From assembly GCA_018057585.1 (NCBI GenBank), contig JAGPDM010000001.1:1-50199 (forward strand): a stretch of DNA of 50,199 nucleotides, in the 5' to 3' direction. The notes under the pieces were generated by a model, which had not been told where the DNA came from, did no database searches, and saw only the letters and a list, made by a program, of their open reading frames with translations. Made by a program: the position numbers and the translations under genes. Below, one piece after another: positions 977-45,096 of the stretch. How positions within the stretch are numbered: position 1 is the first letter of the stretch; each line of letters begins with the position of its first letter. Origin of the DNA: Candidatus Saccharimonadota bacterium (GTDB lineage Bacteria > Patescibacteriota > Saccharimonadia > Saccharimonadales > JAGPDM01).

Positions 977-989
977 AGAAAGGAATATT

Positions 990-9271: not shown

Positions 9272-9282
9272 GGAATGTTGTC

Positions 9283-11055: not shown

Positions 11056-11064
11056 GGGGGTAAT

Positions 11065-12141: not shown

Positions 12142-12149
12142 TAAAAAAA

Positions 12150-13361: not shown

Positions 13362-13435
13362 TAAAGCATAATTACTATTGATTAAACACCGAGGTTAGAG
13401 CAAACTATAAGCATAAGTATAAAAAGGGAATAACA

Positions 13436-13897: not shown

Positions 13898-13899
13898 GC

Positions 13900-14703
13900 T
13901 TGATTGCAAACGATTTTTTACTGGCTATATTTATAGCCAGTTTCGGTTTGATGATTGGCAGTTTTCTTAACGCCTTAGTTTGGAGACTGCGCAATAATCT
14001 ACCCATAGGTGGCAAGGAACGTAGCATTTGCACCAAGTGCAAACACCAGCTAGTTTGGTACGATCTTATACCGGTAATCAGTTGGTTGAGCCTCAAGGCG
14101 AAGTGTCGTTATTGCCAAAAACCTATATCTGCCCAGTACCCGGTCGTGGAACTTCTTAATTCAGCAGTCTGGCTAGTGTCATTCATTGTGCTTCAACCGA
14201 GCACAATGACAGACTATGTTTTGCTAGCAATGTGGCTGTTCGCTAGCTCTTGCCTGCTGGCGCTTGCAACGTATGACGCTAAATGGCTAGAACTACCGGA
14301 TAACCTAGTTTTGGCATTTACGATTGCAACAATTGGCTACATCTTAGTCGATTCGTTTGTGCTTGGTGGTTTTAGCATTATTGCCAGCTCACTTCTAGGA
14401 GTTTTTGCAGTGGCTGGGCTCTTTTACGGACTACATGCCATTAGCGATGGGGCTTGGATTGGCGGAGGAGATGTAAAATTAGCCGTTGGAATGGGTATTC
14501 TGCTTGGTTTAGAACAGGGTCTACTGGCTGTTTTCGTTGCAGCATTTGCTGGTAGTATATTTGGCCTAGCTGGTATTGCTTTCTTTGGTAAAAACCGTTC
14601 TGCACAAATACCGTTTGGTCCATTTTTGATCATGGCTACCATTATCAGCTTTCTATTTGGCGAGCATTTAATTGATCTGTATATGAACCTGATTATTATA
14701 TAG
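13900..14703 (+). CDS. pilD: Prepilin peptidase / N-methyltransferase PilD
   Basis: TTG start 3 nt after the pilA stop. Zn-finger Cys pairs CTKCKHQL...CRYCQKPI, a polytopic membrane layout, and the catalytic Asp motif GGGDVKL. Confidence 0.9.
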   Translation: MIANDFLLAIFIASFGLMIGSFLNALVWRLRNNLPIGGKERSICTKCKHQLVWYDLIPVISWLSLKAKCRYCQKPISAQYPVVELLNSAVWLVSFIVLQPSTMTDYVLLAMWLFASSCLLALATYDAKWLELPDNLVLAFTIATIGYILVDSFVLGGFSIIASSLLGVFAVAGLFYGLHAISDGAWIGGGDVKLAVGMGILLGLEQGLLAVFVAAFAGSIFGLAGIAFFGKNRSAQIPFGPFLIMATIISFLFGEHLIDLYMNLIII

Positions 14704-14725
14704 TGCTTATGTTATACTAAAAGTT

Positions 14726-15397
14726 ATGCATACCTCTGTTAGTGGCAATAAAACCCAAGGTTTTACTATAATTGAAATGCTTCTAGTGCTTGCGATTACT
14801 GGGCTTCTGATGACAATGACATTTTTCGGACAGGGCAGCATTAGAACTCAATCGCAATTCCGCGACTCGGTTGAAGAATTCCGTGCCAGTATGGAATCAA
14901 TCAAAAACCAAGCAAATAACGGGGTCACGTCTAGTCCTGATGGTTGCGGCGTTGTTAACTCTGGTTCAGTAGGCAGTAACCCCGGGTGCGTTCTCTATGG
15001 TCGAGTAATTAAGTTCACAAACAAGACGGATGAATACGTAGTAACTCCAGTATATGGCCAGGGGCCAGATTCGTCAGTTTTTGACCCGAGCAAAGCAGTG
15101 GCTAATCCTCAACCATCCTCTAATCAGGAAAAGAAACTTCTTTGGGGCACACGTTTTTACAAGAATACAACCCCAGCATATAAAATTGGATTTCTTAGGC
15201 ATGCCGGTAATGGACGTTTAGGCACCTATAGGATTGGAGATAGTAAGTCGCTGAATAATGAGCTTAGTTACACCGGCTTAGGTAAAAAGTATACACTCAA
15301 ACTAGTCGGTACCGACTGTGATACAGCTGATGTAGTCTTTAACGATCCAATTAACACTATACGTGTAGAATTTAAAGATACTAAATTATGCATTTAA
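14726..15397 (+). CDS. Minor pilin / pseudopilin
   Basis: Prepilin signal NKTQG|FTIIEMLLVLAITGLLM. Confidence 0.8.
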   Translation: MHTSVSGNKTQGFTIIEMLLVLAITGLLMTMTFFGQGSIRTQSQFRDSVEEFRASMESIKNQANNGVTSSPDGCGVVNSGSVGSNPGCVLYGRVIKFTNKTDEYVVTPVYGQGPDSSVFDPSKAVANPQPSSNQEKKLLWGTRFYKNTTPAYKIGFLRHAGNGRLGTYRIGDSKSLNNELSYTGLGKKYTLKLVGTDCDTADVVFNDPINTIRVEFKDTKLCI

Positions 15398-15906
15398 GAT
15401 TAAATAATCAACGTGGCGATACATTGATCGAGGTGACCCTAGCGGTAGCTATCTTAGCCACAGTGCTAGCTTCGGCCTATGCCGTTACAAGCAGGGCGGC
15501 TAAATCAGGTCAAGCAGCCAAGGAGCGGTCACAGGCAGTGGCTCTGGTCCAGCAGCAGGCTGAGATCATCCAGTCTTTCGCCATTCTAGACTGGGATGAG
15601 TTTATTAGTGATTTTAAGCCTTGGAACTCAGGGCGTAACCATTATGACCCGAGTTCTTGGAGTGCGAAACCAAACATGTGGACAGGCACGGCAGTCTCAA
15701 ACGCAGCTGCAGATTTCCGCGTCTATTATCAGGCTACTTGTTCAACGTCTCGCTTAGGCATGCCAGGCGACAGTTGTAGTGTAAGCACTGATAAAATCAA
15801 CAAAGTCAGTTTTGAGATTACGGCCGATTGGGTCCCGAGCGATGGTGACGGGACAAGACAGTCAACCACGATCGTAGTTCAGGTTTCACCATCGAGGGTG
15901 AAATAG
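15388..15906 (+). CDS. Minor pilin / pseudopilin with atypical Asp at +1
   Basis: NNQRG|DTLIEVTLAVAILATV keeps Glu at +5. Overlaps the preceding gene by 10 nt. Confidence 0.7.
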   Translation: MHLRLNNQRGDTLIEVTLAVAILATVLASAYAVTSRAAKSGQAAKERSQAVALVQQQAEIIQSFAILDWDEFISDFKPWNSGRNHYDPSSWSAKPNMWTGTAVSNAAADFRVYYQATCSTSRLGMPGDSCSVSTDKINKVSFEITADWVPSDGDGTRQSTTIVVQVSPSRVK

Positions 15907-16512
15907 ATGTCAAGACAAAGAAAATCTCAGTCTGGCTTCACGATAATCGAGATATTGTTAGCTATGGCTATATTCAGTTTTGTGATGATTACGATCATAA
16001 CTGCCTTTTCACAGATCATTAGGAGCTACAGGAAAGGTGTTGTTAGTCAGCGAACTCAGGAGGCAACAAGACAAGTGGTCGATTTCGTAAGTAAAGAAGC
16101 TCGTGTGTCGACCGAAATATCCGTAGGCGTGTATGGAACAGGTGTGAATAAGGTTAATATTCTGTGTTTTAAAAATGGGTCTCAGTTTGAATACAAAGCT
16201 AATAATCACACTTTAAAACAAGGTAGTTCTAGTCCGAGCTGCAACAGTTTAGATCCATTGGCTCGTAACGTAGTCGATAAAAAAGAGTTAGATGTTCTAA
16301 AGTTTAAGCCAAGTATTAAATCAACATCCGGGACGCCACCTGTGACATTAGGTATTAACCTAGAGGTCTCAGTAGGAACAAACAATGGACCGGACAGCTT
16401 AATGAATGCAGCCAAAACAGCCTGTGACCCTCTAAAAGCAGGTTCTCAGTTCTGCTCAATATCAAGTTTAAAAACCTCGATCGGACTTAGGGTTAAGGAG
16501 AGTGGACCATGA
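15907..16512 (+). CDS. Minor pilin / pseudopilin
   Basis: Prepilin signal RKSQSG|FTIIEILLAMAIFSFV. Starts directly after the previous stop codon. Confidence 0.8.
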   Translation: MSRQRKSQSGFTIIEILLAMAIFSFVMITIITAFSQIIRSYRKGVVSQRTQEATRQVVDFVSKEARVSTEISVGVYGTGVNKVNILCFKNGSQFEYKANNHTLKQGSSSPSCNSLDPLARNVVDKKELDVLKFKPSIKSTSGTPPVTLGINLEVSVGTNNGPDSLMNAAKTACDPLKAGSQFCSISSLKTSIGLRVKESGP

Positions 16513-17581: not shown

Positions 17582-18496
17582 TTAAGATTGTTTACGGTGG
17601 AATTGTTGGTGAACCTTTTTAAGGTGCGGATCAGTTACATGGGTGTAAATTTGGGTTGTTGATATATTGCTATGACCAAGCATGCCTTGGACGCTACGTA
17701 GATCAGCACCGTTCATCAATAGGTCAGTTGCAAATGAGTGTCGGAGCGTGTGTGGGGTTACTTTTTTAGTTATCCCTGCCAATAGTGCGTATTTTTTAAT
17801 CATCCGCTGGACGCTCCTGGCAGTTAAGCGCATGTAGGAACCAGAATTTGTCAGGTCTTTAGTTCCTGAATAGTGAATAAAAAGTGGTTGAGAGTTGTCG
17901 TCTCTAGCTTTTAGATACTGCTCGATTGATTCGGCCGATTGATCACTAATAAACACCGGCCGATCTTTTTGTCCTTTGCCACGAACAGTAAACTCTCTCC
18001 GCTTCAAATTGATATGCGATCGATCTAACCCAACCAGCTCCGAGACACGAAGACCAGACGAGAACAGTAGCTCTAGGATAGCTCTATCGCGTAGACCGAT
18101 AACAGTCTGCACATCTGGCTGGCTTATCAGTCTTTCAACTTCTTCCGTGCTTAAGAACGTAACTTGCTTGCGTTTGGTGGTCGCTAGCTCTACCTTGTCG
18201 CTTGGTAGGGCATCAACATCAATCAAGGCAAGATATTTGAGGTAGCTACGCAGTGCGATCAGGTGGTAGTTCTGAGTTGATTTACTCAGTAGATCACCAT
18301 GCTCGTCGCTATACCTGTTAAGCCATAAACGCCATTTGCGGACTAGCTCTTTTGTAATATTAGTGATTTTCAGCTCTGGCTTAAACTCGTCTAACCGCAT
18401 TAAATAGTGATGGTAATTAGCGATTGTTTTCTGCGAGCGGTTTTTGTCAACTTCAAGATATTCTAGGAAATCAATGATGGAATCAGCGTAAAGCAT
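17582..18496 (-). CDS. XerC/XerD-family tyrosine recombinase
   Basis: 304 aa with an N-terminal SAM-like core-binding domain. Catalytic residues are seen in LRVSEL, HTLRHSFATDLL and GHSNISTTQIYTHV. Confidence 0.85.
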   Translation of the reverse strand: MLYADSIIDFLEYLEVDKNRSQKTIANYHHYLMRLDEFKPELKITNITKELVRKWRLWLNRYSDEHGDLLSKSTQNYHLIALRSYLKYLALIDVDALPSDKVELATTKRKQVTFLSTEEVERLISQPDVQTVIGLRDRAILELLFSSGLRVSELVGLDRSHINLKRREFTVRGKGQKDRPVFISDQSAESIEQYLKARDDNSQPLFIHYSGTKDLTNSGSYMRLTARSVQRMIKKYALLAGITKKVTPHTLRHSFATDLLMNGADLRSVQGMLGHSNISTTQIYTHVTDPHLKKVHQQFHRKQS

Positions 18497-22921: not shown

Positions 22922-24580
22922 ATGTCAAAAATAGAAAAAACTAATTTCGATCTCGAGATTTCTAAAATTCCTAAAGGTTTTAGACGAACTTTCGAAATAA
23001 TCCCCGGATTTGTCTCTTGGTCGTTCTTGCTGTTGTTTATCATTTTGAGTTTTATCCAGCCAGTAGCTGCAGCATTTATACTGATAGCATTTGACCTATT
23101 CTGGTTAATTAAATCATTGAGTATTGCAGGCAGGCTGATCCAAGGTTACGTTCGTCTCCATCAAACAGACAACGTCGACTGGGCTACTAGGCTTAGCGAC
23201 CTACATAATATAGATTCTGCGATAGATAGATTATCTAAAACCAGTACAAAGTCTAACGGCTATTCACTGTATTTTGAGAATAAAAGATATATCCGCTTTT
23301 TAAATCTCATAAGGCTTAAAAAACATATTAAAAATCCTGATCAAATTTATAATGCTGTAATTATTGCTACGTACAACGAGTCTAATGACATACTGGAGCC
23401 AACAGTTAAGTCATTGGTATCGAGTGCCTACGATCAAAAAAATAAGATGATTGTACTTATAGCCTACGAAGAAAGAGGTGGTTTACAGATAGAACAGACG
23501 GTTAATAAAATAATTAATAAGTATTCTAGAGACTTCTTGATTATCAAATCAATCAAACACAAGCATGATGTCAAGGGAGAGGTAATGGGTAAGGGGCCCA
23601 ATATCACCAATGCTGGTAGACTATTAGAGAAGATGGTGTTGGACATGGGAATTCCTATCGATGATGTTGTTGTTACAACACTAGATTCAGATAACAGGCC
23701 TAGTGAACAGTACTTTAATTATCTAACTTTTCTTTATGCTACTTCAGATAATAGACTAGCTCAGTCATACCAACCAGTAGCTATGTTCTATAATAACATC
23801 TGGGATGCACCTGCCGCGATGAGGGTCGTAGCCGCCGGAAATAGCTTTTGGAACGTTTCATTATCAATGCGGCCACATTTGATCCGCAACTTCTCGGCAC
23901 ATGCCCAAGGATTGGCTGCTTTGATCAAGACTGACTTTTGGTCGGTTGAAACCATCGTGGAGGATGGGCACCAGTTTTGGAGGAGTTACTTCACTTTCGG
24001 GAATGATTACGAGGTTGTACCAATGTACACACCAATATATCAGGACGCAGTACTAGCTGGAACTTACCTGAGGACAATCCTTGTTCAATTTAAGCAGATT
24101 AGACGTTGGGCTTGGGGAGCGTCAGACATTGCCTACGTTGCTTATTATGGATTAAAAGATAAGACAATTCGTAAATCCGATAAGCTTTCTAAATTCTTTA
24201 GATTGTTTGAGAGCCATTTCTCTTGGGCAACTGCACCATTGATACTGGCTTTCATGGCTTGGGCTCCGTTATTTTTAAATCCTGGATCTAATAAGAGCAT
24301 AGTCGTACATCAGCTGCCGATTGTTGTCAGCAGGATACAAACGGTCACGATGGTGGGGCTTTTCATTACGGTGATTATAAGTCTGCTCTCGTTGCCGCCT
24401 AGGCCTAAAGAGTACAGGAAATCAAAATCCTTGCTGATGATCTTCCAGTGGATATTATTCCCAGTAACAACGATTGTATTTGGATCTATTGCCGCATTAA
24501 ATGCTCAGACCAGACTGATGCTAGGCAAGTATCTAGAGGAGTTTGAGGTGACTGAAAAGGCAGTAAAACATGCAGATTGA
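22922..24580 (+). CDS. Membrane-integrated processive family-2 glycosyltransferase (cellulose/chitin/PNAG-synthase-like)
   Basis: VIIATYNES, DSD (23684-23692), VEDGH, and the QxxRW motif QIRRW (24095-24109). TM helices lie at both ends. Confidence 0.85.
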   Translation: MSKIEKTNFDLEISKIPKGFRRTFEIIPGFVSWSFLLLFIILSFIQPVAAAFILIAFDLFWLIKSLSIAGRLIQGYVRLHQTDNVDWATRLSDLHNIDSAIDRLSKTSTKSNGYSLYFENKRYIRFLNLIRLKKHIKNPDQIYNAVIIATYNESNDILEPTVKSLVSSAYDQKNKMIVLIAYEERGGLQIEQTVNKIINKYSRDFLIIKSIKHKHDVKGEVMGKGPNITNAGRLLEKMVLDMGIPIDDVVVTTLDSDNRPSEQYFNYLTFLYATSDNRLAQSYQPVAMFYNNIWDAPAAMRVVAAGNSFWNVSLSMRPHLIRNFSAHAQGLAALIKTDFWSVETIVEDGHQFWRSYFTFGNDYEVVPMYTPIYQDAVLAGTYLRTILVQFKQIRRWAWGASDIAYVAYYGLKDKTIRKSDKLSKFFRLFESHFSWATAPLILAFMAWAPLFLNPGSNKSIVVHQLPIVVSRIQTVTMVGLFITVIISLLSLPPRPKEYRKSKSLLMIFQWILFPVTTIVFGSIAALNAQTRLMLGKYLEEFEVTEKAVKHAD

Positions 24581-26825: not shown

Positions 26826-28643
26826 ATGATTAAGCCAGAACAAAACGATCTATATGCTATGAGGCACAGTCTTGCCCACATTATGGCAACAGCAACAATT
26901 AGCCTTTGGCCAGAGGCTAAGCTTGGTGTTGGACCGGTAGTAGACAACGGTTTTTACTACGACATCGATATTCCAGGGGTTACTATCTCTGAGAGTGATT
27001 TCAAGCAAATCGAAAAAGTTATGCGACAGACAATAAACCAAAAGCAAGATTTTGTTAAAACACAGCTACCAATTGACGACGCAATAGCCTGGGCAAAAGA
27101 AAACAATCAGCCGTACAAAACCGAGCTACTTAATGACCTGAAACGAGCCGGCACCACAGTGGCTAGCAACATTGAACAGGAGGATTTGGGTACGGTTACT
27201 GATGGGGTTTCAGCACTAGATAATGTTTCTTTCTACACTAACGGCAATTTTACAGATTTATGCCGAGGCCCACACGTGGGCAATACGGCCAATGTCGGTG
27301 CTTTTAAGTTGATGAGAGTGGCAGGGGCCTATTGGAGGGGCAAGGAGGGTAATCCGCAAATGCAGAGGCTGTATGGTGTGGCATTCGCGACCAACGAAGA
27401 CCTAGATCTGCATTTAAAGATGCTTGAAGAAGCTAAAAGACGTGATCATCGCAAACTCGGACAAGAGCTCGACTTATTTGTTAGCTCTAGCCTCGTAGGC
27501 CCTGGATTGCCCCTCTTTACTCCCAGAGGCACAATCCTTAGGAATAAGCTTATAGAGCTCACAGAGAGTTATCAGAAGAGCGTAGGTTATGAAGCAGTTT
27601 GGGTGCCACATATGGCTAAGATTGAGCTCTACAAGAAATCAGGTCATTACGATAAGTATCCAGAACGATTTGACGTATCCAGTGGTGAGTCAGATGACAA
27701 GTTCATGATGAAGCCAATGAATTGCCCTCACGTGACCCAAATCTATGCCTCAAGGGCACGCAGTTATCGAGACCTGCCACTGCGATACATGGAAACAACC
27801 ACAATGTACCGCGACGAAAAGAGCGGCGAGCTACATGGATTATCTCGGGTCAGGGCACTGACTCAGGATGATTCGCACTCATTTTGCAGGCGTGATCAAA
27901 TAGAATCAGAAATGGAGTCGTTGATCGCAATCATTAAAGAGGTCTACGAAATACTGGGTCTGGACATGTCCGTCGAACTTTCTTTTAGGGACGAATCAGA
28001 TGGCTACTTGGGTGATGATGCAGTATGGCAAGAATCAGAAAAAAGCCTAGTGGATATTGCCAACAAACTAAACCTAGACTATGTCATTGAAAAAGGTGAA
28101 GCAGCTTTCTATGGGCCCAAAATTGATATTCATATCTCTGACGGACTAGGCAGGCAATGGCAAACGGCGACTGTTCAACTTGATTTTATCCAACCAGATA
28201 GATTCGAGCTAGAATACACAAACCAAGATGGTGAAAAAGAAACACCAGTAATGATTCATAAAACCATACTAGGCTCCATAGAGCGGTTTCTTAGTGTGTA
28301 TATAGAACATAGAGCTGGTAAGTTTCCGTTCTGGTTAGCTCCTGAGCAAATTAGAGTGTTGACAATAAATGATGATGTTAAGGATTATGTCGATGAAATA
28401 ACAACGATTCTCGATGAAACAATACTGATGAAACCAATAAAATATAATGAAATTAGATACAGCTTAGACAATCGTAGCGAATCGATTGGCAAGAAAATCC
28501 GTGAAGCTCGCAAGATGCGAATACCTGTAATTCTGATCGTCGGGCCTAAAGACGAAGCTAGTCGCTCAGTAAGCATAAGAATTGATGATGAAGAGCAAGC
28601 TATAGAGTTATCAAAATTATCTAGCTTTATCAATGAGAGCTGA
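26826..28643 (+). CDS. thrS: Threonine--tRNA ligase (no N-terminal TGS domain)
   Basis: Starts in the editing/SAD domain (MRHSLAHIMA). Class II motifs FMMKPMNCPH, YRDEKSGELHGLSRVR and FYGPKID are present, plus the anticodon-binding C-terminus. Confidence 0.95.
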   Translation: MIKPEQNDLYAMRHSLAHIMATATISLWPEAKLGVGPVVDNGFYYDIDIPGVTISESDFKQIEKVMRQTINQKQDFVKTQLPIDDAIAWAKENNQPYKTELLNDLKRAGTTVASNIEQEDLGTVTDGVSALDNVSFYTNGNFTDLCRGPHVGNTANVGAFKLMRVAGAYWRGKEGNPQMQRLYGVAFATNEDLDLHLKMLEEAKRRDHRKLGQELDLFVSSSLVGPGLPLFTPRGTILRNKLIELTESYQKSVGYEAVWVPHMAKIELYKKSGHYDKYPERFDVSSGESDDKFMMKPMNCPHVTQIYASRARSYRDLPLRYMETTTMYRDEKSGELHGLSRVRALTQDDSHSFCRRDQIESEMESLIAIIKEVYEILGLDMSVELSFRDESDGYLGDDAVWQESEKSLVDIANKLNLDYVIEKGEAAFYGPKIDIHISDGLGRQWQTATVQLDFIQPDRFELEYTNQDGEKETPVMIHKTILGSIERFLSVYIEHRAGKFPFWLAPEQIRVLTINDDVKDYVDEITTILDETILMKPIKYNEIRYSLDNRSESIGKKIREARKMRIPVILIVGPKDEASRSVSIRIDDEEQAIELSKLSSFINES

Positions 28644-29847
28644 ACAGTCACAGAGACTAGAATTTAAAAATAGGGTGTTTTGGTTGGTGTGGAACATCCC
28701 GTTTGGTAAGTGCATCAGTTATGGAGATTTAGCTACGTTGGCAGGCAACCCAAGAGCTGCTCGTATCGTAGGTGGAATTGCGCACAATGGGCCGTCGGAT
28801 CTACCTTGGCATAGAGTAGTCTATAAGGATGGCAAGCTTGCCAGCGGCTTTCCTGGAGGACCAAGCAACCAAAAGGAGATGCTCCAAAGCGAGAGCATAG
28901 AATTTACAGATGACGACATAGTGTCTAATAATAAAATATTTTGGTGGACACCGCCGTCATCCATCCTTAAGCCGATAGTTGTGATTATTGGCGAGACGGC
29001 AAGTGGTAAATCATCAATTGCTATGGGTCTGGCTAAAGAGTTCTCGGGTTCAATCATATCTGCTGATGCCTGGACCGTGAGACGGGGGCTGGATATAGGC
29101 ACCGCAAAGCCCAGCAGGGAAGATCAGGCACAAGTAAAGCACTATCTAATAGACGAGGTCAACGTCGATGAGTCATTTAGTGCAGCCAAATTCAAAGACT
29201 TAGCAAAAGATGCGATTAGAGATAGCTATAGCAGTAGAAGCCTACCGATTATCGTGGGGGGTAACGGTCTGTATGTCGATGGACTTATTTATGGATATTC
29301 ATTCTTGGAACAATATGACGAATCGTTGCGTAAATGGCTACAGTCATTGGATACTAAAGAGGTTTTAAATGAGGCTTCAGCTCTTGGTTTAGACTGTTCT
29401 GGTGTCGATACTAAAAATAAGCGTCGATTAATTAGACTAATCGAAACACAAGGTCATCACCCATTGCGTTCTCCAGTTAGACGGCCCAATACGTTGCTAC
29501 TAGGTGTAAGGAGAACAAGTGAAGAGATGAAGGCAAGAATCAAAGAACGAATAGATCAAATGATTGAGGTTGGTTTGGTTGATGAGGTAAGAAATTTAGT
29601 AGATAAGCATGGCTGGGATAACGAAATTATGAAAGCTATCTGTTATCGTGAATTTGAAGGCTATTTTGAGGGCGATAAGTCCTTGGAAGAAGTTAAGTCT
29701 CTGATTGTAAGATCAACTAACAATCTGGCTAAGCGCCAAAGAACCTGGAACAGGAAGTATGAAGATATTCACTGGTTGTCGGCTATCGAGGAAGCTTCGA
29801 GGCTGGTGTGCAAATTTCTAGATCAATCAGGGTATAATACCAAGTAG
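28633..29847 (+). CDS. miaA: Fusion of an alkyltransferase-like (ATL/MGMT-family, Cys-less) domain and tRNA dimethylallyltransferase MiaA
   Basis: The N-terminal ~105 aa contain ISYGDLATLAGNPRAARIVG and PWHRV (28804-28818). MiaA follows with the P-loop GETASGKSS (28990-29016), ISADAWTVRRGLDIGTAKP and HYLID. Confidence 0.85.
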   Translation: MRAEQSQRLEFKNRVFWLVWNIPFGKCISYGDLATLAGNPRAARIVGGIAHNGPSDLPWHRVVYKDGKLASGFPGGPSNQKEMLQSESIEFTDDDIVSNNKIFWWTPPSSILKPIVVIIGETASGKSSIAMGLAKEFSGSIISADAWTVRRGLDIGTAKPSREDQAQVKHYLIDEVNVDESFSAAKFKDLAKDAIRDSYSSRSLPIIVGGNGLYVDGLIYGYSFLEQYDESLRKWLQSLDTKEVLNEASALGLDCSGVDTKNKRRLIRLIETQGHHPLRSPVRRPNTLLLGVRRTSEEMKARIKERIDQMIEVGLVDEVRNLVDKHGWDNEIMKAICYREFEGYFEGDKSLEEVKSLIVRSTNNLAKRQRTWNRKYEDIHWLSAIEEASRLVCKFLDQSGYNTK

Positions 29848-37815: not shown

Positions 37816-37839
37816 AAATCCTCATAATTATCTGCATGA

Positions 37840-37869
37840 ATTCTAAGCTTGAATGCTGTTACCTGTAAA
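37840..37869 (-). promoter_or_regulatory. Candidate comM promoter
   Basis: On the minus strand: TTTACA (37869-37864), an 18-nt spacer, then TAGAAT (37845-37840). GAGGA RBS before the ATG. Confidence 0.4.
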
Positions 37870-37874
37870 GCTCT

Positions 37875-37962
37875 TTAAATAAATAACAGCGACCCGGAGA
37901 AGGTCGCTGTTGATGGTATGTAACCGTTTTTGTTTTTGAGTACTTTTTTTATTCAAAGTACT
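37875..37962 (-). ncRNA. Candidate ~90-nt small RNA (promoter, 5' hairpin, terminator)
   Basis: Minus-strand TTGACA (37997-37992), a 17-nt spacer, then TAATCT (37974-37969). Next comes the hairpin AGTACTTT/AAAGTACT (37939-37962), a CA-rich linker, and the terminator at 37885-37911. It contains no ORF. Confidence 0.25.
37885..37911 (-). terminator. Intrinsic terminator oriented on the minus strand, upstream of the comM promoter
   Basis: Perfect 10-bp stem AACAGCGACC / GGTCGCTGTT with a 7-nt loop. The U-rich tract TTATTTATTT follows only on the minus strand. Confidence 0.55.
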
Positions 37963-38025
37963 GAATACAGATTAGAATATGCTTATGTTAGTGTCAATAG
38001 TCATTTTTACAATGACAATTCTGCC

Positions 38026-38034
38026 TGTGGATAA
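38026..38034. other. Perfect DnaA-box 9-mer (TGTGGATAA = TTATCCACA), isolated
   Basis: Exact match read directly from the sequence. I found no second box with 1 mismatch or fewer within the region. Confidence 0.4.
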
Positions 38035-39107
38035 AAGGTAAGATTCTTTGCCGATTTATAGAAGCGCTCCGTTCATTACTGCTTTAAATAAGAAGTTTCA
38101 TCAACCCTGCGTTAGCTAGGTGTGTGATGATAATTTAAAAAAATAATCACACTTAGCTCATCAGGAAATGCATCTCATCCAGTATTTTATGAAGGTTAAC
38201 TAAGTAGCTCAAATCATCAAATCTGTCTGACGTAGGTGATTTCGTGCCTAACGAATCGAAGTATTGGTGAGCACTAATATCTTTACATGCAGTCAACCTT
38301 GGGCAGGTGTCTGATCGACCAATAGGTTTGCTTGGTGATATGAAAAGACATGGATTTTAAGCAGAGCTCGATAAGTACCATTACCCCTACAAATTCAAAG
38401 CATTGGATCAGGCCGTTGTCTATCAACTAGTTATTTCAAGCATTAGATTAGTCTCATTGATTTTGTGAGCAGACTAGTAACTTGCCGAACAGGTTTAGCT
38501 GTCTGCAGATCGCTTTACGATTCAGCTTAAAAGTCAATCGAATTTAGCCGCTCCAATATATAGCAGTAGATTGGTTCATGATTTTTCTAGCTGCACGTAC
38601 AATTAATTATCTGTACGTATCTGTAGCCTTATTGCTCTTACTTTTGAAATAGAGCTTTTGTTAGGCAGTAGCGGCGTCGATAGCAACATAGATGATGCCT
38701 TTGAATGGTAATTAAATCACAGTTAGTTATAAATTTTAATTAAAAGTTTAAATATTATGAATCGGCTTTTATTAATATAAAATTACATTTCAAGTGATTT
38801 TAGTTAAATGTCGATACTGTTCAATGTTGGCTGTTTTGAAAGTGCTAATTCTAAACATAATAACTAGAGTGTTCAATTAAATTCTTCAAGACTCATAAGA
38901 ATACTTAGTAAATTTATATTAATATTGTAATTAATACTACATTAAATTTTTAAAATTACATCTGTTAATTCTTTTTACTACAACAAAATGTATTACTATT
39001 CATTGACTTGTTGAATATTAACTTGTTAATGTATATTTGTAACATTAAATCAATGTTATGCAAGTGTAGGTAGTTTGTTGCTTCTAGGTTTAAGCCTGAA
39101 GCAATTT

Positions 39108-39169
39108 AAAATAGAGCAATAAGCGCCACATAATTTGAGAAGTGTAGGGCGGTTTTATTGCTCTATTTT
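39108..39169. repeat. Long inverted repeat / hairpin immediately upstream of the 39199 operon
   Basis: AAAATAGAGCAATAA (39108-39122) pairs perfectly with TTATTGCTCTATTTT (39155-39169). An inner CGCC/GGCG adds 4 bp, the loop is 20 nt, and a T-run follows. Confidence 0.6.
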
Positions 39170-39198
39170 TTATATTATGAGGGTATACTGGTAATATT

Positions 39199-39525
39199 AT
39201 GAATATCCTAACATCACTCAAGCAGCAGTCATTCTTGTTGATAGCTTTAACCTTGAGCGTAGCTGTGATCGCCATAACTACTTCGCCCTTTTCATATCCA
39301 ATTTATGTGCCGATATTAGTAGTTTTGCTCGCTTCAATCAGCTTTATATCTATGGTTATGTTGCGTAATAAATTAAAAATATCTGTGAATATCGCTACGT
39401 TGGTGCATTTGAACATTATTGTCGCAGTAATTGTTGCACTATGTTCTTTACACCAGTTAAAAATTACTGACATGGCCTTGATAATTGGGCTGTATTTCTT
39501 ACTCAGGATTTATTCTAAAAGGTAG
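39199..39525 (+). CDS. Small polytopic membrane protein, hypothetical
   Basis: 108 aa with three to four hydrophobic helices. First gene of a co-directional trio. The RBS is weak. Confidence 0.5.
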   Translation: MNILTSLKQQSFLLIALTLSVAVIAITTSPFSYPIYVPILVVLLASISFISMVMLRNKLKISVNIATLVHLNIIVAVIVALCSLHQLKITDMALIIGLYFLLRIYSKR

Positions 39526-39564
39526 CGATGTAATTAGTGTTGGTTATTGTTATAATGCTTATAA

Positions 39565-40014
39565 ATGGAAGAACAAAATATAAATATGCAAACTGGAAAC
39601 ACAGAATTTAGACAGCCTGCACAAGAGTTTGTTGCTCCGCCGGGTAGTGAGCTTGTACCAGATTTAGCTCCAGCACCTGCAATGCAAGAAAAGGCTCCAG
39701 CAAACAGGGAGGGCGCTAATCAGAATAGTGGAATGACCTTGCCACCGGTTGTGCCTCAACCAATTTCAAACACTCCTGATCCACAGTCAGCAGCTTCTAT
39801 TAGCCAGGTTGCACCACTAGTGATAGACCCTAATCCACCTAAGGCAGACGATGTCGATGTGATTGAAAAAGAATGGGTAGATAAGGCAAGAAAGATCGTA
39901 GAGCAATCCAAAGACGACCCATACAGACAGGAGCTAGAAGTCGGAAAGCTTCAGATCGACTATATGAATAAACGTTATGGTAGGGAAATTAAACCTGGCA
40001 GTACGTCGCCTTAG
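39565..40014 (+). CDS. Hypothetical protein: Pro-rich N-half, charged helical C-terminus
   Basis: 149 aa. The C-terminal segment is DVIEKEWVDKARKIVEQSKDDPYRQELEVGKLQIDYMNKRYGREIK. Ends 9 nt before the ATPase gene. Confidence 0.65.
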   Translation: MEEQNINMQTGNTEFRQPAQEFVAPPGSELVPDLAPAPAMQEKAPANREGANQNSGMTLPPVVPQPISNTPDPQSAASISQVAPLVIDPNPPKADDVDVIEKEWVDKARKIVEQSKDDPYRQELEVGKLQIDYMNKRYGREIKPGSTSP

Positions 40015-40023
40015 GCTAATTGT

Positions 40024-43000
40024 ATGGCAGGTGTAATAGCAGTTTTAGTAACGATCAGCTTCTTCTTAGGAGCAATTGCTTTCGTCTACTACCGGTATCG
40101 TTCGATTCTAAGATATGCTAAGGGAGTAGAGAGAGGCTTGAAAGTTGTGCCGCTTCTAATCGAACTACCACCAGCAAGCGATGACACCGAGATAGGCACA
40201 AGAGATGTTAGGGACGTCTTACAGGAGAAAGTCTCACAAGCGGAGGTGCTATATAACATAGTTGCAAGCACGGCCCAGGATGGATTTAAGAGTAAATTTT
40301 ACGGACAGAGGCACATAGCATTCGAAATCGTGGCCGTTAAAGGTAGTGTTCACTTCTATGCAGCAGTTCCTGTGGCTCTGTTGGATATTGTTAAACAGGC
40401 GATTGTCAGTGCCTACCCGACGGTCCAGCTTCAAGAAGCACAAGAGCATAATATATTTAGTCAAGTTGGAAAGATTAGCGGGACCATAGGTGGCGAGGTG
40501 GTCCTTAAGAATGATTATGCATACCCGATCGCAACTATACAGCAGACTAAGCGAGATGGGATGCAGGGTCTACTCAACGCCTTGACAGCACTTGGCCCAG
40601 ACGATGGCGCTGCGGTACAGATCATGCTCCGTCCCGCAAAGTCTGGCTGGGAAAAGAAATCTAAGGATTTAGTCGATAGAATCAAAAAGGATAAAGGCAA
40701 AAGTGGCTCAGGTATTTCCGCTGGACTAGGTGGAGTCATGGACCTTATGGCGGCACCAAGCAAAGTCCCAGAAGCTAAAGAGAAAGCTCCGGACGAAAAG
40801 CAGCTTTCTAATCTAGAACAGAGTCAAGTAGAGGCAGTCGAAGAGAAAACCAGGCATCCAGCCTACGAGGTACTGATCAGGGTTGTTAGTTCATCAAATA
40901 CGGCGAATCGCTCTCAATCGACCCTACGCAATATTATTTCTTCATTTTCACTCTATGATGCCCCGGGATTGAACGGTTTTAAATATAATGAAGCTAAAGA
41001 TATCGAGAATTTCGTCACGGCGTTCATTTTTAGATTTTTTCCACCAGAGATTGACACCAATGTTTTGAATAGTGTAGAGCTAGCGACCTTATTTCATTTT
41101 CCTGATCAACAGTTTACTTATTCATCCCAGCTTCAGAGACAGTCTGCTAAGCAAGTTGACGGACCTAATATTTTGCCAGACTCCGGACTGTTGCTGGGCT
41201 ATAACGTGTTTAGGGGTGTTAAAAAAGAGATCCGCCTCAGCGCTGATGACCGTCGCAGGCATGTATATATAGTTGGTCAAACTGGTACTGGTAAGTCAAC
41301 ACTACTAGAGAACATAATCCTCCAGGACATGGTTGATGGAAACGGGCTAGCTTTTGTTGATCCTCACGGTGACACGGCCGAAAAGTTGCTATCCATGGCA
41401 CCGAGGAACAGAGTAGACGATATCGTCTACTTCAATCCGGGGGACATGGCCAATCCTTTAGGTTTGAATTTATTCGAGTTTACAGACCCTGAACAAAAGG
41501 ATTTTCTGATACAGGAAGCTATAAACATGCTATATAAGTTGTACGATCCACAACACCAAGGAATAATTGGCCCTAGATACGAGCACTGGTTTAGAAATGC
41601 CGCACTGACACTTATGGCCGATCCTAAAGGTGCTACATTCATAGAGATTCCTAAGATATTTACAGATAAGCAATTTGCTAAAGAAAAGCTAAAGTACGTC
41701 AAAGACCCGACTGTTCTAGATTTTTGGAATAAAGAAATGGCACAGACAAGTGATTATCATAAGAGTGAAGTCCTTGGTTGGTTTGTTAGTAAGTTCGGTG
41801 CTTTTGTCAGTAACGAAATGATGCGCAATATTATCGGACAGGTAAAGGGCTCGTTTGAGCTTCGAGATATTATGGATAATAAGAAAATATTGATAGTTAA
41901 CCTTTCGAAAGGCAAGGTGGGTGAACTAAACTCCAAGCTACTTGGAATGATATTCATAATGAAGTTTCAGGCTGCCGCCATGAGCAGAGCTAATATACCC
42001 GAAGACCAGCGCGTCGACTTCAGTCTGTATGTTGATGAGTTTCAGAACTTTTCAACTGACTCATTTGCCACGATATTGTCTGAGGCTAGAAAGTACCGTC
42101 TGAACCTAATCGTCGCCAACCAGTTCATAGGGCAGTTAACCGAAGAAATACGTGATGCGGTTTTTGGAAACGTCGGAACGATCATTAGTCTTAGGGCTGG
42201 TGCCACTGATGCAGATTTCCTAGTAAAACAATTCACACCGATATTTGATGCCCAAGATATTATAAAAGTACCGAACTACAACGCTATTACAAGATTGATG
42301 ATTGGGGGTGTTCCTTCCCAGCCTTTCAGCCTGACCACCTTGCCACCCTTTGGTACTCCGAACGAGCAGTTAATGAGTGCACTTAAGCAGCTGTCTGCTG
42401 CTCGTTATGGCAAACCACGTGCAGATGTTGAGAAGGACATATTTAAGCGATTAGAAACGAAGCCAGTACCTAATAAGCCAAAACTAGGAGCTCCTGGAGC
42501 GACTGGACGCGCATTGCCTGCTGCAGGCGGAGTAGGAGGGCGCCCTGGAGCAAAGGCTCCGGGCAAGCCAGGCTCAAGCTCTTTCTTGGACGACTGGCTA
42601 GCTAAGAAGAGGAAACAGGCAGCCACCTCATCATCCGGTCCATCCAGCTCGCTGCCAATGACGGCTTCATCAAGAGGTAGCAGCGATATCTCGACTAGCC
42701 AGCTACCACTACCGGCCGTGGTCAATGATCAGACGAGTAATAATACTCAGCAGTCTGAAAGTGTTTCTGGTGCCATAGATTATAGCCAACCACCAGTCGG
42801 GACAGATCAATCAACACCTGGAACCCCACAGCAAACCATTAACAACGAGCCACAGCCTGCGGTAACACCTTCGCAGTCCATTACCGCTCAGGCCATGGAT
42901 GCTCAATCTAACCCACGGAATATATATCAAAAAGCTCCAGCACAGGACGCAACAGTGAGCATTGATAACAACCTACAGGACGGCGGACTTGTGCAAAGCG

Positions 43001-43062
43001 CTCAAACTGATCAGCTGTCCCAGATTAATATTGATCAGAACGGTAATATAATCAACAAATAA
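40024..43062 (+). CDS. Membrane-anchored P-loop NTPase of the VirD4/TraD/VirB4-like (FtsK-HerA superfamily) type, with a long disordered tail
   Basis: N-terminal TM helix. Walker A GQTGTGKST (41275-41301), Walker B LYVDEFQNF (42025-42051), and ARKYRLNLIVANQFIGQL. The last ~200 aa are P/S/T/Q-rich. Confidence 0.85.
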   Translation: MAGVIAVLVTISFFLGAIAFVYYRYRSILRYAKGVERGLKVVPLLIELPPASDDTEIGTRDVRDVLQEKVSQAEVLYNIVASTAQDGFKSKFYGQRHIAFEIVAVKGSVHFYAAVPVALLDIVKQAIVSAYPTVQLQEAQEHNIFSQVGKISGTIGGEVVLKNDYAYPIATIQQTKRDGMQGLLNALTALGPDDGAAVQIMLRPAKSGWEKKSKDLVDRIKKDKGKSGSGISAGLGGVMDLMAAPSKVPEAKEKAPDEKQLSNLEQSQVEAVEEKTRHPAYEVLIRVVSSSNTANRSQSTLRNIISSFSLYDAPGLNGFKYNEAKDIENFVTAFIFRFFPPEIDTNVLNSVELATLFHFPDQQFTYSSQLQRQSAKQVDGPNILPDSGLLLGYNVFRGVKKEIRLSADDRRRHVYIVGQTGTGKSTLLENIILQDMVDGNGLAFVDPHGDTAEKLLSMAPRNRVDDIVYFNPGDMANPLGLNLFEFTDPEQKDFLIQEAINMLYKLYDPQHQGIIGPRYEHWFRNAALTLMADPKGATFIEIPKIFTDKQFAKEKLKYVKDPTVLDFWNKEMAQTSDYHKSEVLGWFVSKFGAFVSNEMMRNIIGQVKGSFELRDIMDNKKILIVNLSKGKVGELNSKLLGMIFIMKFQAAAMSRANIPEDQRVDFSLYVDEFQNFSTDSFATILSEARKYRLNLIVANQFIGQLTEEIRDAVFGNVGTIISLRAGATDADFLVKQFTPIFDAQDIIKVPNYNAITRLMIGGVPSQPFSLTTLPPFGTPNEQLMSALKQLSAARYGKPRADVEKDIFKRLETKPVPNKPKLGAPGATGRALPAAGGVGGRPGAKAPGKPGSSSFLDDWLAKKRKQAATSSSGPSSSLPMTASSRGSSDISTSQLPLPAVVNDQTSNNTQQSESVSGAIDYSQPPVGTDQSTPGTPQQTINNEPQPAVTPSQSITAQAMDAQSNPRNIYQKAPAQDATVSIDNNLQDGGLVQSAQTDQLSQINIDQNGNIINK

Positions 43063-43076
43063 CGGTAGTGGTGTCT

Positions 43077-43460
43077 CTAGGCTGTGTATTTGTGATTAAA
43101 GAATACGACTATTAATTCAACAGAAAGACCAATAAATCCACCGATTAGTAGCGCCATTATACTTACTGAATAGTTGTAGCTATATCCATAGAATTTTGCA
43201 AGTTCCCAGAGTATTATTGTTACTAGCAGGCCGGAGAAAACCGCCCCGAACATCGCAGAATTACGAGCTACAGAATTATGGGTGATTTCATGCAGAAAAT
43301 GCCGGTCAGTTCGGTTGCCAGTAGAGTTTTTCCTAATCTTTTTCACTCTATATTCAGGATTGTTGTTTGGTAGATCTATAATTGCAGAGTTTGCCTTTAA
43401 TTTTTTAATCACGGACTGTCTAGGCTGGTTTGGTTTAGCTCGGGTTATATCACCTTTCAT
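43077..43460 (-). CDS. Hypothetical membrane protein (basic N-half, two C-terminal TM helices)
   Basis: 127 aa. Overlaps the end of the upstream 548-aa gene by 11 nt. Confidence 0.55.
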   Translation of the reverse strand: MKGDITRAKPNQPRQSVIKKLKANSAIIDLPNNNPEYRVKKIRKNSTGNRTDRHFLHEITHNSVARNSAMFGAVFSGLLVTIILWELAKFYGYSYNYSVSIMALLIGGFIGLSVELIVVFFNHKYTA

Positions 43461-45096
43461 CTGTGTCTGCTTTTTCTGAAAAGAGGTAGCTTCGTCTTAA
43501 TTGAACCAGCTCATTCTTAGCTCGACGGCTGTTCATGAAATAATAAAGGCAGGCTAGTGAGACGAGGAACAGAATTGACAGCACGAGTCGAGAGCTTGCT
43601 ACTGGGAGTTTCTGCATACTCTGTTCAACCAACTTAACATTGCCACAATCAATTTTTTGATTAGATTCATTTCCGTAGCTTATAGAAATTATACAGTCAT
43701 TGTATCTTGGGTCTGAGTTAGGTTGTGGTGATGAATTCGCATTAATGTTAACCTGAAGTTCAAAAGTCTTTTGCACATGCTCTCCGGCCCTTATATTGAA
43801 CGCTGGCCACAGTAGCATATCATCTGATAATACACCGCCGTTCGGTTTGGTTAGTGTTGCATATTGCAATGCATCGCTTAAGACTAGGCCTGGTATGTAT
43901 TTGTTTTTAAAATCTTGCTGGCTGTCATTGTTTATGTCTACTGTATAAAGCAGCCTATCACCAGGTTCGCCAATATGCTCGCTGTTAAGCTTAGGTTCTG
44001 TGTTTTGAGTTAGATTTTTCACACGTATAGACGTCTCCAACCCAAAGCTTGGTATGAGCGTTTTGTCAGTAGGCGGAGGTTGCAGGAGGCTTTCAGCATT
44101 TACTCTAGGCTGTTCTTGTGCCGATGTAGTTTTGTAGCAGTCAGTTTTTGTCTGGCTAGCAGCATCTATCGCACTAAATGTAGATACTATGCATAGTTCC
44201 TCACTATCTGCCTTATCTGGGTCGAGGCTCATCACTAAGTCGAAATACTGGTTAGCATTAGGGTTAAGCTTCTGCCAACTAAAATCTGTGCGTCCATTGT
44301 TGGTAGTAGATGTTCTTACAGGATAGGCAGCTTCGAGTTTTATGCTGTCTGGCAGTTTAATACTGATTTTAGGCCCATTAATCGGTTTATCTGCTTCGCT
44401 AGACACAAAGACTCTGTAATTTATCTTTTTAGTATTAAGTTCAGGTTGGATGGGTGTGCCATGGTCGTCAACCAGGCTAGTGAGTAGGTTTATTCTTCTC
44501 GAGTTATCTTTGAAGACTATATTACCTGATCCATAAAGCACGTAGATGTCGCTTTTTATCCTCAAAGATTTCTGGTACTTTAGGCCATTGTCCTTAAATA
44601 GCTTATCCAGATCTGTATAGTAGTAGCCAGATAATGACCTTGTCTGCATCGGGTGTCCAGATTTACGTCCCAATATCTTTAATTCCTTTGTTTCTTCACA
44701 GCCTCGAGTGCATATTTTTCTTTCTGATGAATTTTCAATATCTGACCGGTCTACGCCGAAAGATGCAAACACATTCTGTATGTCTGATTCCTGACCACCA
44801 CCTGGATTTTGGTTATTATCCCAAACTTGAAGCAATATCCTCTTTGCAGTATTCTCTGAGCCTGTTAAGCCGCCATAAATTAAATCATTGTCACTAGCTG
44901 CAACCGAGCTCTGGATTGGAGAGGTGTATAAGTAGACATTAAGTCCCAGTAGCAGTAGGGAAAGAGCCAAAGTAATTGATCGTAATCTATGGTGCTTTGC
45001 ATACAGCTTTATCTGCCGAGGCAGCATATCTAAGAGAGATGGGCTGTAACTCATTTTACTCACAAGTTCTTTGTAGGATGTTTTCATAAGTTTCAA
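43450..45096 (-). CDS. Bitopic surface protein with a DUF11-like repeat region
   Basis: 548 aa with TM helices near both termini. The extracytoplasmic region contains GDRLLYTVDINNDSQQDF, which is DUF11-like. Confidence 0.7.
   Translation of the reverse strand: MKLMKTSYKELVSKMSYSPSLLDMLPRQIKLYAKHHRLRSITLALSLLLLGLNVYLYTSPIQSSVAASDNDLIYGGLTGSENTAKRILLQVWDNNQNPGGGQESDIQNVFASFGVDRSDIENSSERKICTRGCEETKELKILGRKSGHPMQTRSLSGYYYTDLDKLFKDNGLKYQKSLRIKSDIYVLYGSGNIVFKDNSRRINLLTSLVDDHGTPIQPELNTKKINYRVFVSSEADKPINGPKISIKLPDSIKLEAAYPVRTSTTNNGRTDFSWQKLNPNANQYFDLVMSLDPDKADSEELCIVSTFSAIDAASQTKTDCYKTTSAQEQPRVNAESLLQPPPTDKTLIPSFGLETSIRVKNLTQNTEPKLNSEHIGEPGDRLLYTVDINNDSQQDFKNKYIPGLVLSDALQYATLTKPNGGVLSDDMLLWPAFNIRAGEHVQKTFELQVNINANSSPQPNSDPRYNDCIISISYGNESNQKIDCGNVKLVEQSMQKLPVASSRLVLSILFLVSLACLYYFMNSRRAKNELVQLRRSYLFSEKADTDER

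Follow-up and report, generated by a model that had tools for sequence, protein, structure and literature searches.

A DUF8128-type ATPase with small partner genes and a conserved structured RNA in Saccharibacteria: a coupling-protein-like motor that may serve a type IV secretion system encoded elsewhere

Type IV coupling proteins (T4CPs) and their FtsK and HerA relatives pump DNA, and for TraD and DotL a function of the C-terminal tail in substrate or adaptor docking has been established. In archaea, the Ced system associates an ATPase of the VirB4/VirD4 superfamily with small membrane proteins, outside any classical conjugative element. Patescibacteria account for a large share of bacterial diversity. 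Among them, Saccharibacteria generally encode a type IV secretion system (T4SS), and the one of S. epibionticum (SEML1_0006-0019), which is located near dnaA and contains a canonical VirB4 (SEML1_0008), is essential and has been described without recognisable coupling or relaxase proteins (Wang et al., 2023; PMC10633639). VirD4-like homologues have nonetheless been counted in 2,918 of 3,035 Patescibacteria genomes (5,713 proteins, only 148 of them near virB4), VirB4 being present in 2,417 genomes (Quinonero-Coronel et al., 2025; PMC12102498). Here, we describe a locus from a Candidatus Saccharimonadota bacterium (contig JAGPDM010000001.1, positions 1 to 50,199; this whole stretch of 50,199 nucleotides (nt) is called the window) in which a structured RNA element is followed by three co-directional genes encoding a small membrane protein (p108), a soluble partner (p149) and an ATPase of 1012 amino acids (aa), separated by 39 nt and 9 nt, respectively. 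The trio represents, as its Saccharibacteria orthologue, a module found throughout Patescibacteria in which the gene of a small disordered partner precedes that of a DUF8128 ATPase, and we tentatively favour the reading that its ATPase is an unlinked coupling or energising ATPase of the chromosomal Patescibacterial T4SS encoded elsewhere.

The predicted architecture of the ATPase combines a transmembrane (TM) anchor, a domain resembling the N-terminal domain of VirB4 at the fold level only, a coupling-protein-like motor and a disordered tail (Table 1). As a basic stretch follows the TM helix, the bulk of the protein is likely cytoplasmic. The Walker A, Walker B and ARKYRLNLIVANQ motifs and the N-terminal TM helix, all quoted in an earlier note made from the sequence, are present in this protein, and the catalytic residues that are invariant among 34 homologues include G418, Q419, T420, G421, G423, K424, D671, E672, R689, K690, N699 and Q700. 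Regarding the motor, a family profile of 34 sequences (A1) was aligned by hhalign with TrwB, the VirD4 protein of R388, with a probability of 96.2% (E = 2.3e-9; 252 columns, aa 404-707 to TrwB 116-393) over a span that takes in both Walker motifs and the inserted helical region, against a probability of 16% for TrwK, the VirB4 protein of R388. DotL and TrwB were also the best PDB sequence matches, both with the single sequence and with the 34-sequence profile, and the top NCBIfam matches were TraD (1.3e-12), TrbC and a VirD4-like model, all far under their curated cutoffs. The earlier placement of this protein among translocase-type ATPases, nearest to the T4CPs, is thus upheld. The VirB4 model TIGR00929 reached 15.6 bits for a cutoff of 643, while FtsK_SpoIIIE (PF01580) gave 15.2 bits for a cutoff of 24 over 22 residues of the P-loop only, with no gamma domain. 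PF01935 (DUF87/HerA) passed its cutoff (26.5 vs 23.2) but spans aa 405-497 only, that is, the Walker A region, and HerA structures rank lower than VirB4 and TrwB in Foldseek. Because it missed the curated T4CP cutoffs, has one N-terminal TM helix and not two, and is not linked to T4SS or relaxase genes in the window or the 83 related loci, the protein is not filed as a canonical T4CP and is best described as belonging to a DUF8128 subfamily of T4SS-type ATPases, coupling-protein-like without being a canonical member.

The stretch of about 380 aa in front of the motor, left unassigned in the earlier note, turns out to be Pfam DUF8128 (PF26449), with a predicted fold like that of the VirB4 N-terminal domain. 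Precomputed annotations assign this family to a fragment of 100% identity (P0001) and to nearly all homologues, and it was not returned by a local Pfam scan of the 1012-aa protein. When aa 1-400 were modelled with AlphaFold2 (AF2), at medium confidence (pLDDT 75, pTM 0.72), all 14 Foldseek matches to the PDB at E <= 1e-3 were TrwK/VirB4 chains (best fold match E = 3.6e-6, TMq 0.42), the next one beyond VirB4 chains having E > 1e-2, and matches in BFVD included gp156 of phage G (4.5e-18) and the VirB4-like gp155 (1.9e-7). At the sequence level, no match to the VirB4 N-terminal domain was obtained with Pfam (no PF03135), NCBIfam or hhalign against TrwK. In the full-length model (pLDDT 65), the best whole-chain match was again TrwK/VirB4, over about 800-860 columns (Foldseek E = 1e-11), TrwB being aligned over the motor only (about 350 columns; E = 1e-8, TMt ~0.5). 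This superposition of N-terminal domain and core on TrwK/VirB4, with an N-terminal fold that matches VirB4 exclusively, would suit a VirB4-like assembly ATPase, that is, a second motor extracting and polymerising VirB2-like pilins or assembling the T4SS inner-membrane complex. We consider such a role improbable, since the core is coupling-protein-like by sequence, the TM-scores to VirB4 are modest (0.29-0.43, from medium-confidence models) and the S. epibionticum T4SS already has its canonical VirB4. The pilin array of S. epibionticum is essential, which speaks for an assembly motor, as does the small membrane protein gene upstream, comparable to VirB3 for VirB4; p108, however, bears no VirB3/PrgI signature.

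Regarding the distribution of the trio, homologues number more than 7,500 for the ATPase (56-80% identity) and 4,909 for p149, so that these open reading frames (ORFs) are genes and not chance readings. At least 574 GTDB species loci encode the ATPase, the closest genome in the GTDB scan showing 66% identity; the 80 best loci are Saccharibacteria-type metagenome-assembled genomes (MAGs), nearly all labelled so, and the synteny counts given here come from 83 loci (80 for the 4-TM gene). In 82/83 loci, the gene immediately ahead of the ATPase is p149, at a distance that is mostly between -4 and +18 nt. The members of the p149 family, all of about 130-160 aa, have a Pro/Ala/Gln-rich disordered N-terminal half, variable in the family, and a conserved helix-rich C-terminus with the invariant module ADDxDLIEKEWVxKAKxIV...DPY...KADYxKKRYGK (core motif at nt 39856-39900, aa 98-112), and no Pfam match was found in any member examined. 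p108 contains 3-4 hydrophobic segments, and an ORF of 105-150 aa with about four such segments occupies its position in roughly 70 of the 80 loci. This 4-TM family, which has no Pfam entry, is confined to Saccharibacteria, absent in one of their loci (L001) and weakly conserved (about 20-25% identity in the alignment), its shared features being TxP after TM1, SxxQLxxxD before TM4 and a C-terminal FY..R. Assignments of p108 as VirB3, PrgI, TrsC, SMR or CrcB-type found no support, Pfam scans of 15 family members having returned nothing consistent, and the PHROGs gave no match for the four small or neighbouring proteins. The co-conservation of both small genes with the ATPase agrees with the dedicated partners proposed in the earlier note.

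Outside Saccharibacteria, 1,325 of the 50%-identity representatives are relatives of the N-terminal domain; among the 150 relatives listed, the full-length proteins carry it near their N-terminus. In other Patescibacteria (L086, L088, L092, L093), small disordered Pfam-less genes occupy the position of p149. The gene of a Falkowbacteria-type relative (P0159, 39% identical, with a TM anchor) lies between a 159-aa disordered Pfam-less gene, at a 3-nt gap, and dnaX; in L093 a 201-aa disordered partner gene precedes the ATPase relative; and L092 (4556-10784) contains two tandem pairs of small disordered partner and DUF8128 ATPase genes, flanked by ribosomal genes/TGT and secDF. Homology of p149 with these upstream genes was considered and rejected as not significant, hhalign aligning only the 12 residues EKEWVxKAKxIV (E = 0.038, probability 1%), and the correspondence is one of position and style only. 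Another relative (P0215, 32% identical), which belongs to an anchor-less subfamily, is found beside PrgI-, VirB4- and M23-type genes near dnaN in a Patescibacterium (L087). The Bacillus phages G and SPO1 also encode full-length homologues, which are 22-24% identical over aa 87-813; the window ATPase matches the function-unknown PHROG 5156 profile with E = 7e-90. In phage G (L085), the homologue gp156 follows a 6-TM protein (gp153), the small gp154 and the VirB4-like gp155, and gp153-gp156 read as what looks like a mini T4SS-like module. In SPO1 (L084, gp27.3-gp27.9), gp27.4 comes after three 1-TM mini-proteins and before a gene with the annotation replication nickase; the neighbourhood also encodes an actin-like partition protein. 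Both phage homologues and P0215 lack the N-terminal TM helix, and the phage ones the long tail as well. This tail has a highly variable length among relatives, which range from 770 to about 2,000 aa, and its pLDDT is about 30-35 except for a helix at 854-867. F854, L855, D856 and K861 are invariant, and W858, L859, I1003, D1004 and G1007 reach a conservation of 90% or more. An amphipathic helix that includes a Trp occurs in four places, namely in p149 (EKEWVDKARK), in the ATPase tail (SSFLDDWLAKKRK), in the L093 partner (GSSFRWLSEW) and in the L086 partner.

Published data on S. epibionticum allow the module to be placed in a physiological context. SEML1 orthology was assigned by synteny, on gene order, sizes and spacing, and transposon sequencing (Tn-seq) calls are given for three time points as essential (ES), growth defect (GD) or non-essential (NE). 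The ATPase counterpart SEML1_0142 (1019 aa, "TraM recognition domain") was scored ES/ES/ES, class I essential, and classed as core and Patescibacteria-enriched; the p149 counterpart SEML1_0141 (139 aa) was GD/ES/ES, with 0 insertions from T0 to T2, and the p108 counterpart SEML1_0140 (117 aa) NE/GD/GD (Table S1, PMC10633639). Among the neighbours, SEML1_0138 (comM) and the p127 and p548 counterparts SEML1_0143 and SEML1_0144 were NE, gyrB ES/ES/ES and gyrA GD/ES/ES, and a second DUF8128-type paralogue, SEML1_0293, was NE and hence dispensable (Table S1, PMC10633639). The main text of Wang et al. (2023) is silent on SEML1_0140-0142 (PMC10633639). The S. epibionticum t4cp has been reported as non-essential (Quinonero-Coronel et al., 2025; PMC12102498), a statement that fits the paralogue SEML1_0293 and not the essential SEML1_0142, and the window ATPase is very probably among the "T4CP homologues far from virB4" of the same study (PMC12102498).

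If the ATPase is the unlinked coupling or energising ATPase of the chromosomal T4SS, it would form a hexameric ring on the cytoplasmic side of the membrane, with its TM helix and its VirB4-like N-terminal domain as organising elements. p149 and, in Saccharibacteria, also the 4-TM p108 would hold or regulate this ring. ATP hydrolysis would then drive the feeding of substrates into the T4SS, itself devoid of a coupling protein. Such substrates would more likely be unfolded proteins than DNA, because most of these genomes lack relaxases, none being found in the window. The disordered tail and p149 could provide substrate or adaptor docking in the manner of the TraD and DotL tails, and the sequences of p149 and of the ATPase tail hint that partner and tail may be interchangeable carriers of one docking motif. 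The structured leader RNA, in which a terminator-like hairpin stops 30 nt short of the p108 start codon, would gate expression of the operon. This reading accords with the embedding of relatives in T4SS-like modules (L087, phage G), with the replication-nickase neighbour of gp27.4 in SPO1, with the description of the S. epibionticum T4SS without a coupling protein and with a comparable transposon depletion in SEML1_0142 and VirB4, the surviving insertions at T0 being 11/114 for SEML1_0142 and 9/80 for SEML1_0008 (PMC10633639).

Several observations nevertheless weigh against it. T4SS genes never adjoin the ATPase in the 83 Saccharibacteria loci, orthologues in other Patescibacteria have dnaX, ribosomal genes or secDF as neighbours, and the T4SS-adjacent relative, of the P0215 type, belongs to a different, anchor-less subfamily. 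The motor missed the T4CP curated cutoffs of TraG-D_C (19.7 vs 22) and TrwB_AAD_bind (16.4 vs 20.5), as well as those of the NCBIfam models TIGR03743 TraD (47 vs 366) and CD1115 (39.7 vs 250). SEML1_0142 is ES already at T0, whereas most T4SS genes were first called GD (PMC10633639). Moreover, since VirD4-like homologues occur in 2,918 genomes and VirB4 in 2,417, some genomes appear to keep such an ATPase without a detected T4SS, a comparison that MAG incompleteness confounds.

The same observations bear on the possibility, in our view rather unlikely, of an autonomous translocase, in which the TM-anchored ring, p149 and a 4-TM oligomer would form a self-sufficient, essential machine exporting or importing, independently of the T4SS, a macromolecule that these host-dependent cells need. 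The ATPase indeed carries a membrane anchor and is accompanied by a dedicated small membrane protein, always lies in a housekeeping context away from T4SS genes, belongs to a family more widespread than VirB4, has a counterpart that is ES at T0 like the type IV pilus (T4P) and core information-processing genes, and occurs in L092 as tandem partner-ATPase pairs with no T4SS genes nearby. However, it is not co-conserved with any cell-wall hydrolase, surface component or polytopic protein of channel size, and the 4-TM gene is restricted to Saccharibacteria, is missing from L001 and has in S. epibionticum a counterpart giving only a growth defect. The relatives embedded in T4SS-like modules argue in the same direction. 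The stand-alone minimal device put forward in the earlier note is therefore not established, as Saccharibacteria generally have elsewhere a T4SS described without a recognisable coupling protein and relatives stand beside T4SS genes (L087, phage G).

Other roles can be considered from the genomic context. comM is found in 61/83 and gyrB in 62/83 loci, so that the housekeeping flanks (comM, gyrBA) which the earlier note had recognised in the window extend to most loci. With these neighbours in Saccharibacteria and dnaX in the Falkowbacteria-type locus, a role in DNA handling at the cytoplasmic face, tied to replication or segregation, for example as a membrane-tethered pump that cooperates with gyrase, with DnaX or with ComM, or that serves DNA uptake, would have relatives with the appropriate activity, a counterpart that is essential like replication genes and a weak NCBIfam match to the archaeal DNA-translocating ATPase CedD. 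Synteny is however weak evidence here, because these small genomes generally conserve it; S. epibionticum has a separate canonical and essential FtsK, its comEC is dispensable for viability and its comM non-essential, and no DNA-binding domain was detected in the ATPase by Pfam scan, which together make this role quite improbable. A function as FtsK substitute was rejected on account of the missed FtsK models and of this separate FtsK, and the comparison drawn in the earlier note with single-ATPase double-stranded DNA transfer in actinomycetes does not hold, since the motor there is of FtsK type. That the locus is the remnant of an integrated conjugative element or prophage is scarcely credible. 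Phage homologues (PHROG 5156; G, SPO1) and a conjugation-type ATPase would suit such a remnant, but most of the 83 loci are syntenic, identity is 56-80% class-wide, the counterpart is essential and no integrase, relaxase or repeats occur at the borders. The base composition matches that of the flanks, apart from the codon bias of the ATPase tail.

Upstream of the trio, the gap from comM to p108 (37816-39198, GC 0.32) contains no ORF, and the same holds for more than 20 further loci. The corresponding gap ahead of the 4-TM gene measures 0.7-1.7 kb in more than 20 loci and 2.85 kb in S. epibionticum. Two short blocks alone are conserved in it, the AT-rich middle of about 1 kb (~38000-39060) being divergent even in comparison with L089, whose ATPase is 77% identical. 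With these two blocks and no strand switch or change of GC skew, one large non-coding RNA or an origin of replication (oriC) is not supported as an explanation of the gap. Block 2 is the structured RNA of Table 1. In the family, this RNA of about 115-125 nt is found on the operon strand, 16-100 nt ahead of the 4-TM gene (L003, L007, L016, L022, L089 and others) and consists of hairpin P1, a GGUCAGUCA linker and hairpin P2 with AAGCGC...GCGGAUUU, often followed by a U-run. The window copy has a diverged 5' half, without the GGUCAGUCA linker present in most species, and folds with -38.2 kcal/mol (z = -4.7). From an alignment of 43 sequences (A4), RNAalifold predicted 19 pairs, of which 14 show compensatory changes; 97.7% of the cells are paired vs <=46% in slid controls, double-change cells number 65 vs <=14, and 0/500 shuffles attained the observed values. 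A covariance model (R1) found at most one sense-strand copy per Saccharibacteria locus, including loci beyond its training set, and one weak antisense overlap, with no further copy in the window and none in loci of other Patescibacteria. In Rfam, neither RNA block had a match at gathering or E <= 1 thresholds.

Because P2 ends 30 nt before the ATG of p108, there is little room for a separate promoter, so that the element more likely acts in cis, as a leader of the operon or as its attenuator. An independent single-copy small RNA is a candidate as well: L089 has a separate terminator after the element, in L078 the element is 4 kb away, and in L001 it heads a pheS-pheT-p149-ATPase arrangement. 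Taking leader RNA, p108, p149 and ATPase together as one autonomous, essential and Patescibacteria-specific envelope translocase of VirB4/VirD4-intermediate descent, which would move a macromolecule indispensable to these host-dependent cells without involving the T4SS and be controlled by a new class of cis-regulatory RNA, would be an unlikely view. At the other end of the gap, an element of about 85 nt is found immediately upstream of comM (~37868-37995, minus strand) in 69/83 loci, with a core conserved at >=90%. It comprises a TTGACA-17-TAnnAT promoter-like site, a hairpin GCACUUGAAUAAAAAAAGUGC, the invariant UCAAAAACAAAAA and a 10-bp hairpin with the loop UCUCGCA; 5/15 pairs of the element covary, and it moves together with comM where this gene is relocated (L001, L059). 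This element could be either a comM leader or a small RNA.

Table 1. Features of the locus, its window and two partner genes of other Patescibacteria (nucleotide positions in the window unless a locus is named)
Feature	Position (nt)	Position (aa)	Strand	Remarks
Type IV pilus cluster	6665-16512		+	PilM, PilO-like, PilB, PilT, PilC, pilin, prepilin peptidase (PilD), 3 further N-methyl pilins
Xer-type tyrosine recombinase	17582-18496		-	N-terminal SAM-like domain; Phage_integrase E = 1e-44
Structured RNA element (block 2)	39066-39182		+	ends 17 nt before p108 start codon
P1 hairpin	~39077-39105		+	
P2 long hairpin	39108-39169		+	conserved internal motif AAGCGC...GCGGNUUU, then U-run
p108	39199-39525		+	first gene of trio, small 4-TM membrane protein
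p149	39565-40014		+	second gene of trio, soluble partner
ATPase	40024-43062	1012 aa	+	third gene of trio; DUF8128 / coupling-protein-like family
N-terminal TM helix	40033-40092	4-23	+	read from sequence; AF2 helix, pLDDT 83-96
N-terminal domain (~330 aa), Pfam DUF8128	40141-41118	~40-365	+	VirB4-N-terminal-domain-like predicted fold
P-loop ATPase core with inserted helical domain	41221-42453	~400-810	+	
Walker A GQTGTGKST	41275-41301	418-426	+	
Walker B LYVDEFQNF	42025-42051	668-676	+	
Motif ARKYRLNLIVANQ	42085-42123	688-700	+	
Disordered C-terminal tail (~200 aa)	42454-43059	811-1012	+	Ser/Pro/Ala/Gln-rich
Tail conserved island SSFLDDWLAKKRK	42577-42615	852-864	+	
Tail conserved island, C-terminal I-D-x-x-G motif		1001-1012	+	
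p127	43077-43460		-	small membrane protein, second gene of p548-p127 operon
p548	43450-45096		-	bitopic DUF11/CLIPPER-type surface protein
L093 partner	L093:7368-7973			carries Trp-containing amphipathic helix
L086 partner	L086:7519-7998			carries Trp-containing amphipathic helix

The five ORFs listed in the earlier note, namely the trio and the convergent pair p548-p127, were recovered at the positions and on the strands of Table 1. Regarding this pair, p548 has a sub-threshold DUF11/CLIPPER match while its orthologues clear CLIPPER (PF01345), and p127 belongs to no Pfam family; p548 is present in 68/83 loci and p127, by tblastn, in 42/83. Their genes overlap by 11 nt and thus form an operon of their own, the stop codons of p127 and of the ATPase being separated by 14 nt. 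The pair, which the earlier note had described together with the trio, is syntenic but its S. epibionticum counterparts are non-essential, whereas those of the trio are essential or give a growth defect. p548 and p127 are syntenic neighbours and probably not part of the machine, a role that was rejected as unsupported given their own operon and these non-essential counterparts.

The content of the window was established by Pfam scans of 45 ORFs, and its gene order is that of SEML1_0097-0146 in S. epibionticum ML1; the window is a Saccharibacteria chromosome, and the best homologues bear Saccharibacteria labels. It starts with S6, SSB and EF-P, followed by the type IV pilus cluster, about 22 kb distant from the trio; after the tyrosine recombinase come BacA, NDK, ThrRS, MiaA, MurT/GatD, L20, L35, IF3, DUF4446 and comM and then, after a gap of 1.4 kb free of ORFs, the trio with its convergent pair, followed by gyrB and gyrA. 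Among these 45 ORFs, no VirB4, VirB6, VirB8, relaxase or phage gene was found, as the earlier note had held; its exclusion of an integrase, however, overlooked the recombinase of Table 1, which is probably a housekeeping Xer enzyme. Likewise, the type IV pilus cluster, a locus of secretion type, had gone unmentioned; neither it nor the recombinase touches the trio. This cluster corresponds to the T4P1 locus of S. epibionticum, which is essential there. Two large ORFs have no Pfam match, one of 832 aa directly upstream of pilM (4092-6590, plus strand) and one of 552 aa (22922-24580, plus strand). At 28633-29847 (plus strand), an Ogt-type DNA-binding domain (DNA_binding_1) appears to be fused to the tRNA isopentenyltransferase MiaA (IPPT), whereas in L003 these two parts are called as separate, overlapping genes.

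The earlier note had asked whether the ATPase belongs to a characterised family: the DUF8128 family is already catalogued, in Pfam and among the "T4CP homologues far from virB4" (PMC12102498), but it has no member of demonstrated function. In the literature consulted, we found no description of the DUF8128 fold, the partner module, the phage relatives and their contexts or the leader RNA, nor of the distinction between an essential and a dispensable paralogue, and reports elsewhere are possible. A Patescibacteria-enriched core family thus stands without assigned function while its S. epibionticum member is scored essential, and the literature may be corrected in that the dispensable t4cp fits SEML1_0293, the counterpart of the present locus being scored essential. 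If the ATPase is truly the missing coupling protein of the T4SS, it will be a handle for finding the substrates of this system; if it works alone, it will represent a new kind of minimal translocase. Moreover, the joining of a VirB4-like N-terminal domain to a coupling-protein-like motor bears on the divergence of VirB4 and VirD4, and the conserved leader RNA is tractable in a genetically accessible Saccharibacterium.

FtsK/SpoIIIE and actinomycete TraB are membrane-anchored members of the same ATPase superfamily as the window ATPase, which has no 4-TM N-terminus and neither an alpha nor a gamma domain. The match to archaeal CedD (NCBIfam, 4.9e-7) amounts to 28.8 bits for a cutoff of 600 and covers the Walker A region only, and the locus, unlike archaeal Ced, has no CedA-like polytopic protein. 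The homologues gp156 of phage G and gp27.4 of SPO1 extend across both the N-terminal domain and the ATPase core, but sit in T4SS-like or replication-nickase modules. With VirB4, represented by TrwK of R388, the ATPase shares the two-domain architecture, at the level of the predicted fold the N-terminal domain, and a small membrane protein gene upstream; it departs from it in having no VirB4 signal at the sequence level, a T4CP-like core, its own TM helix and a long tail, and the 4-TM p108, two genes upstream, shows no VirB3, PrgI or TrsC signal in the 15 family members scanned. Unlike T4CPs, it has one TM helix in place of the usual two, an additional VirB4-like domain of about 330 aa between anchor and core, and no linkage to T4SS or relaxase genes in the 50-kb window or the 83 loci, and it is chromosomal, vertically inherited and essential in a relative. 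Like the T4CPs TrwB of R388, VirD4, TraD and DotL, it nonetheless combines an N-terminal membrane anchor with a P-loop core containing an inserted all-alpha region and, like TraD and DotL, it ends in a disordered C-terminal tail with conserved short motifs.

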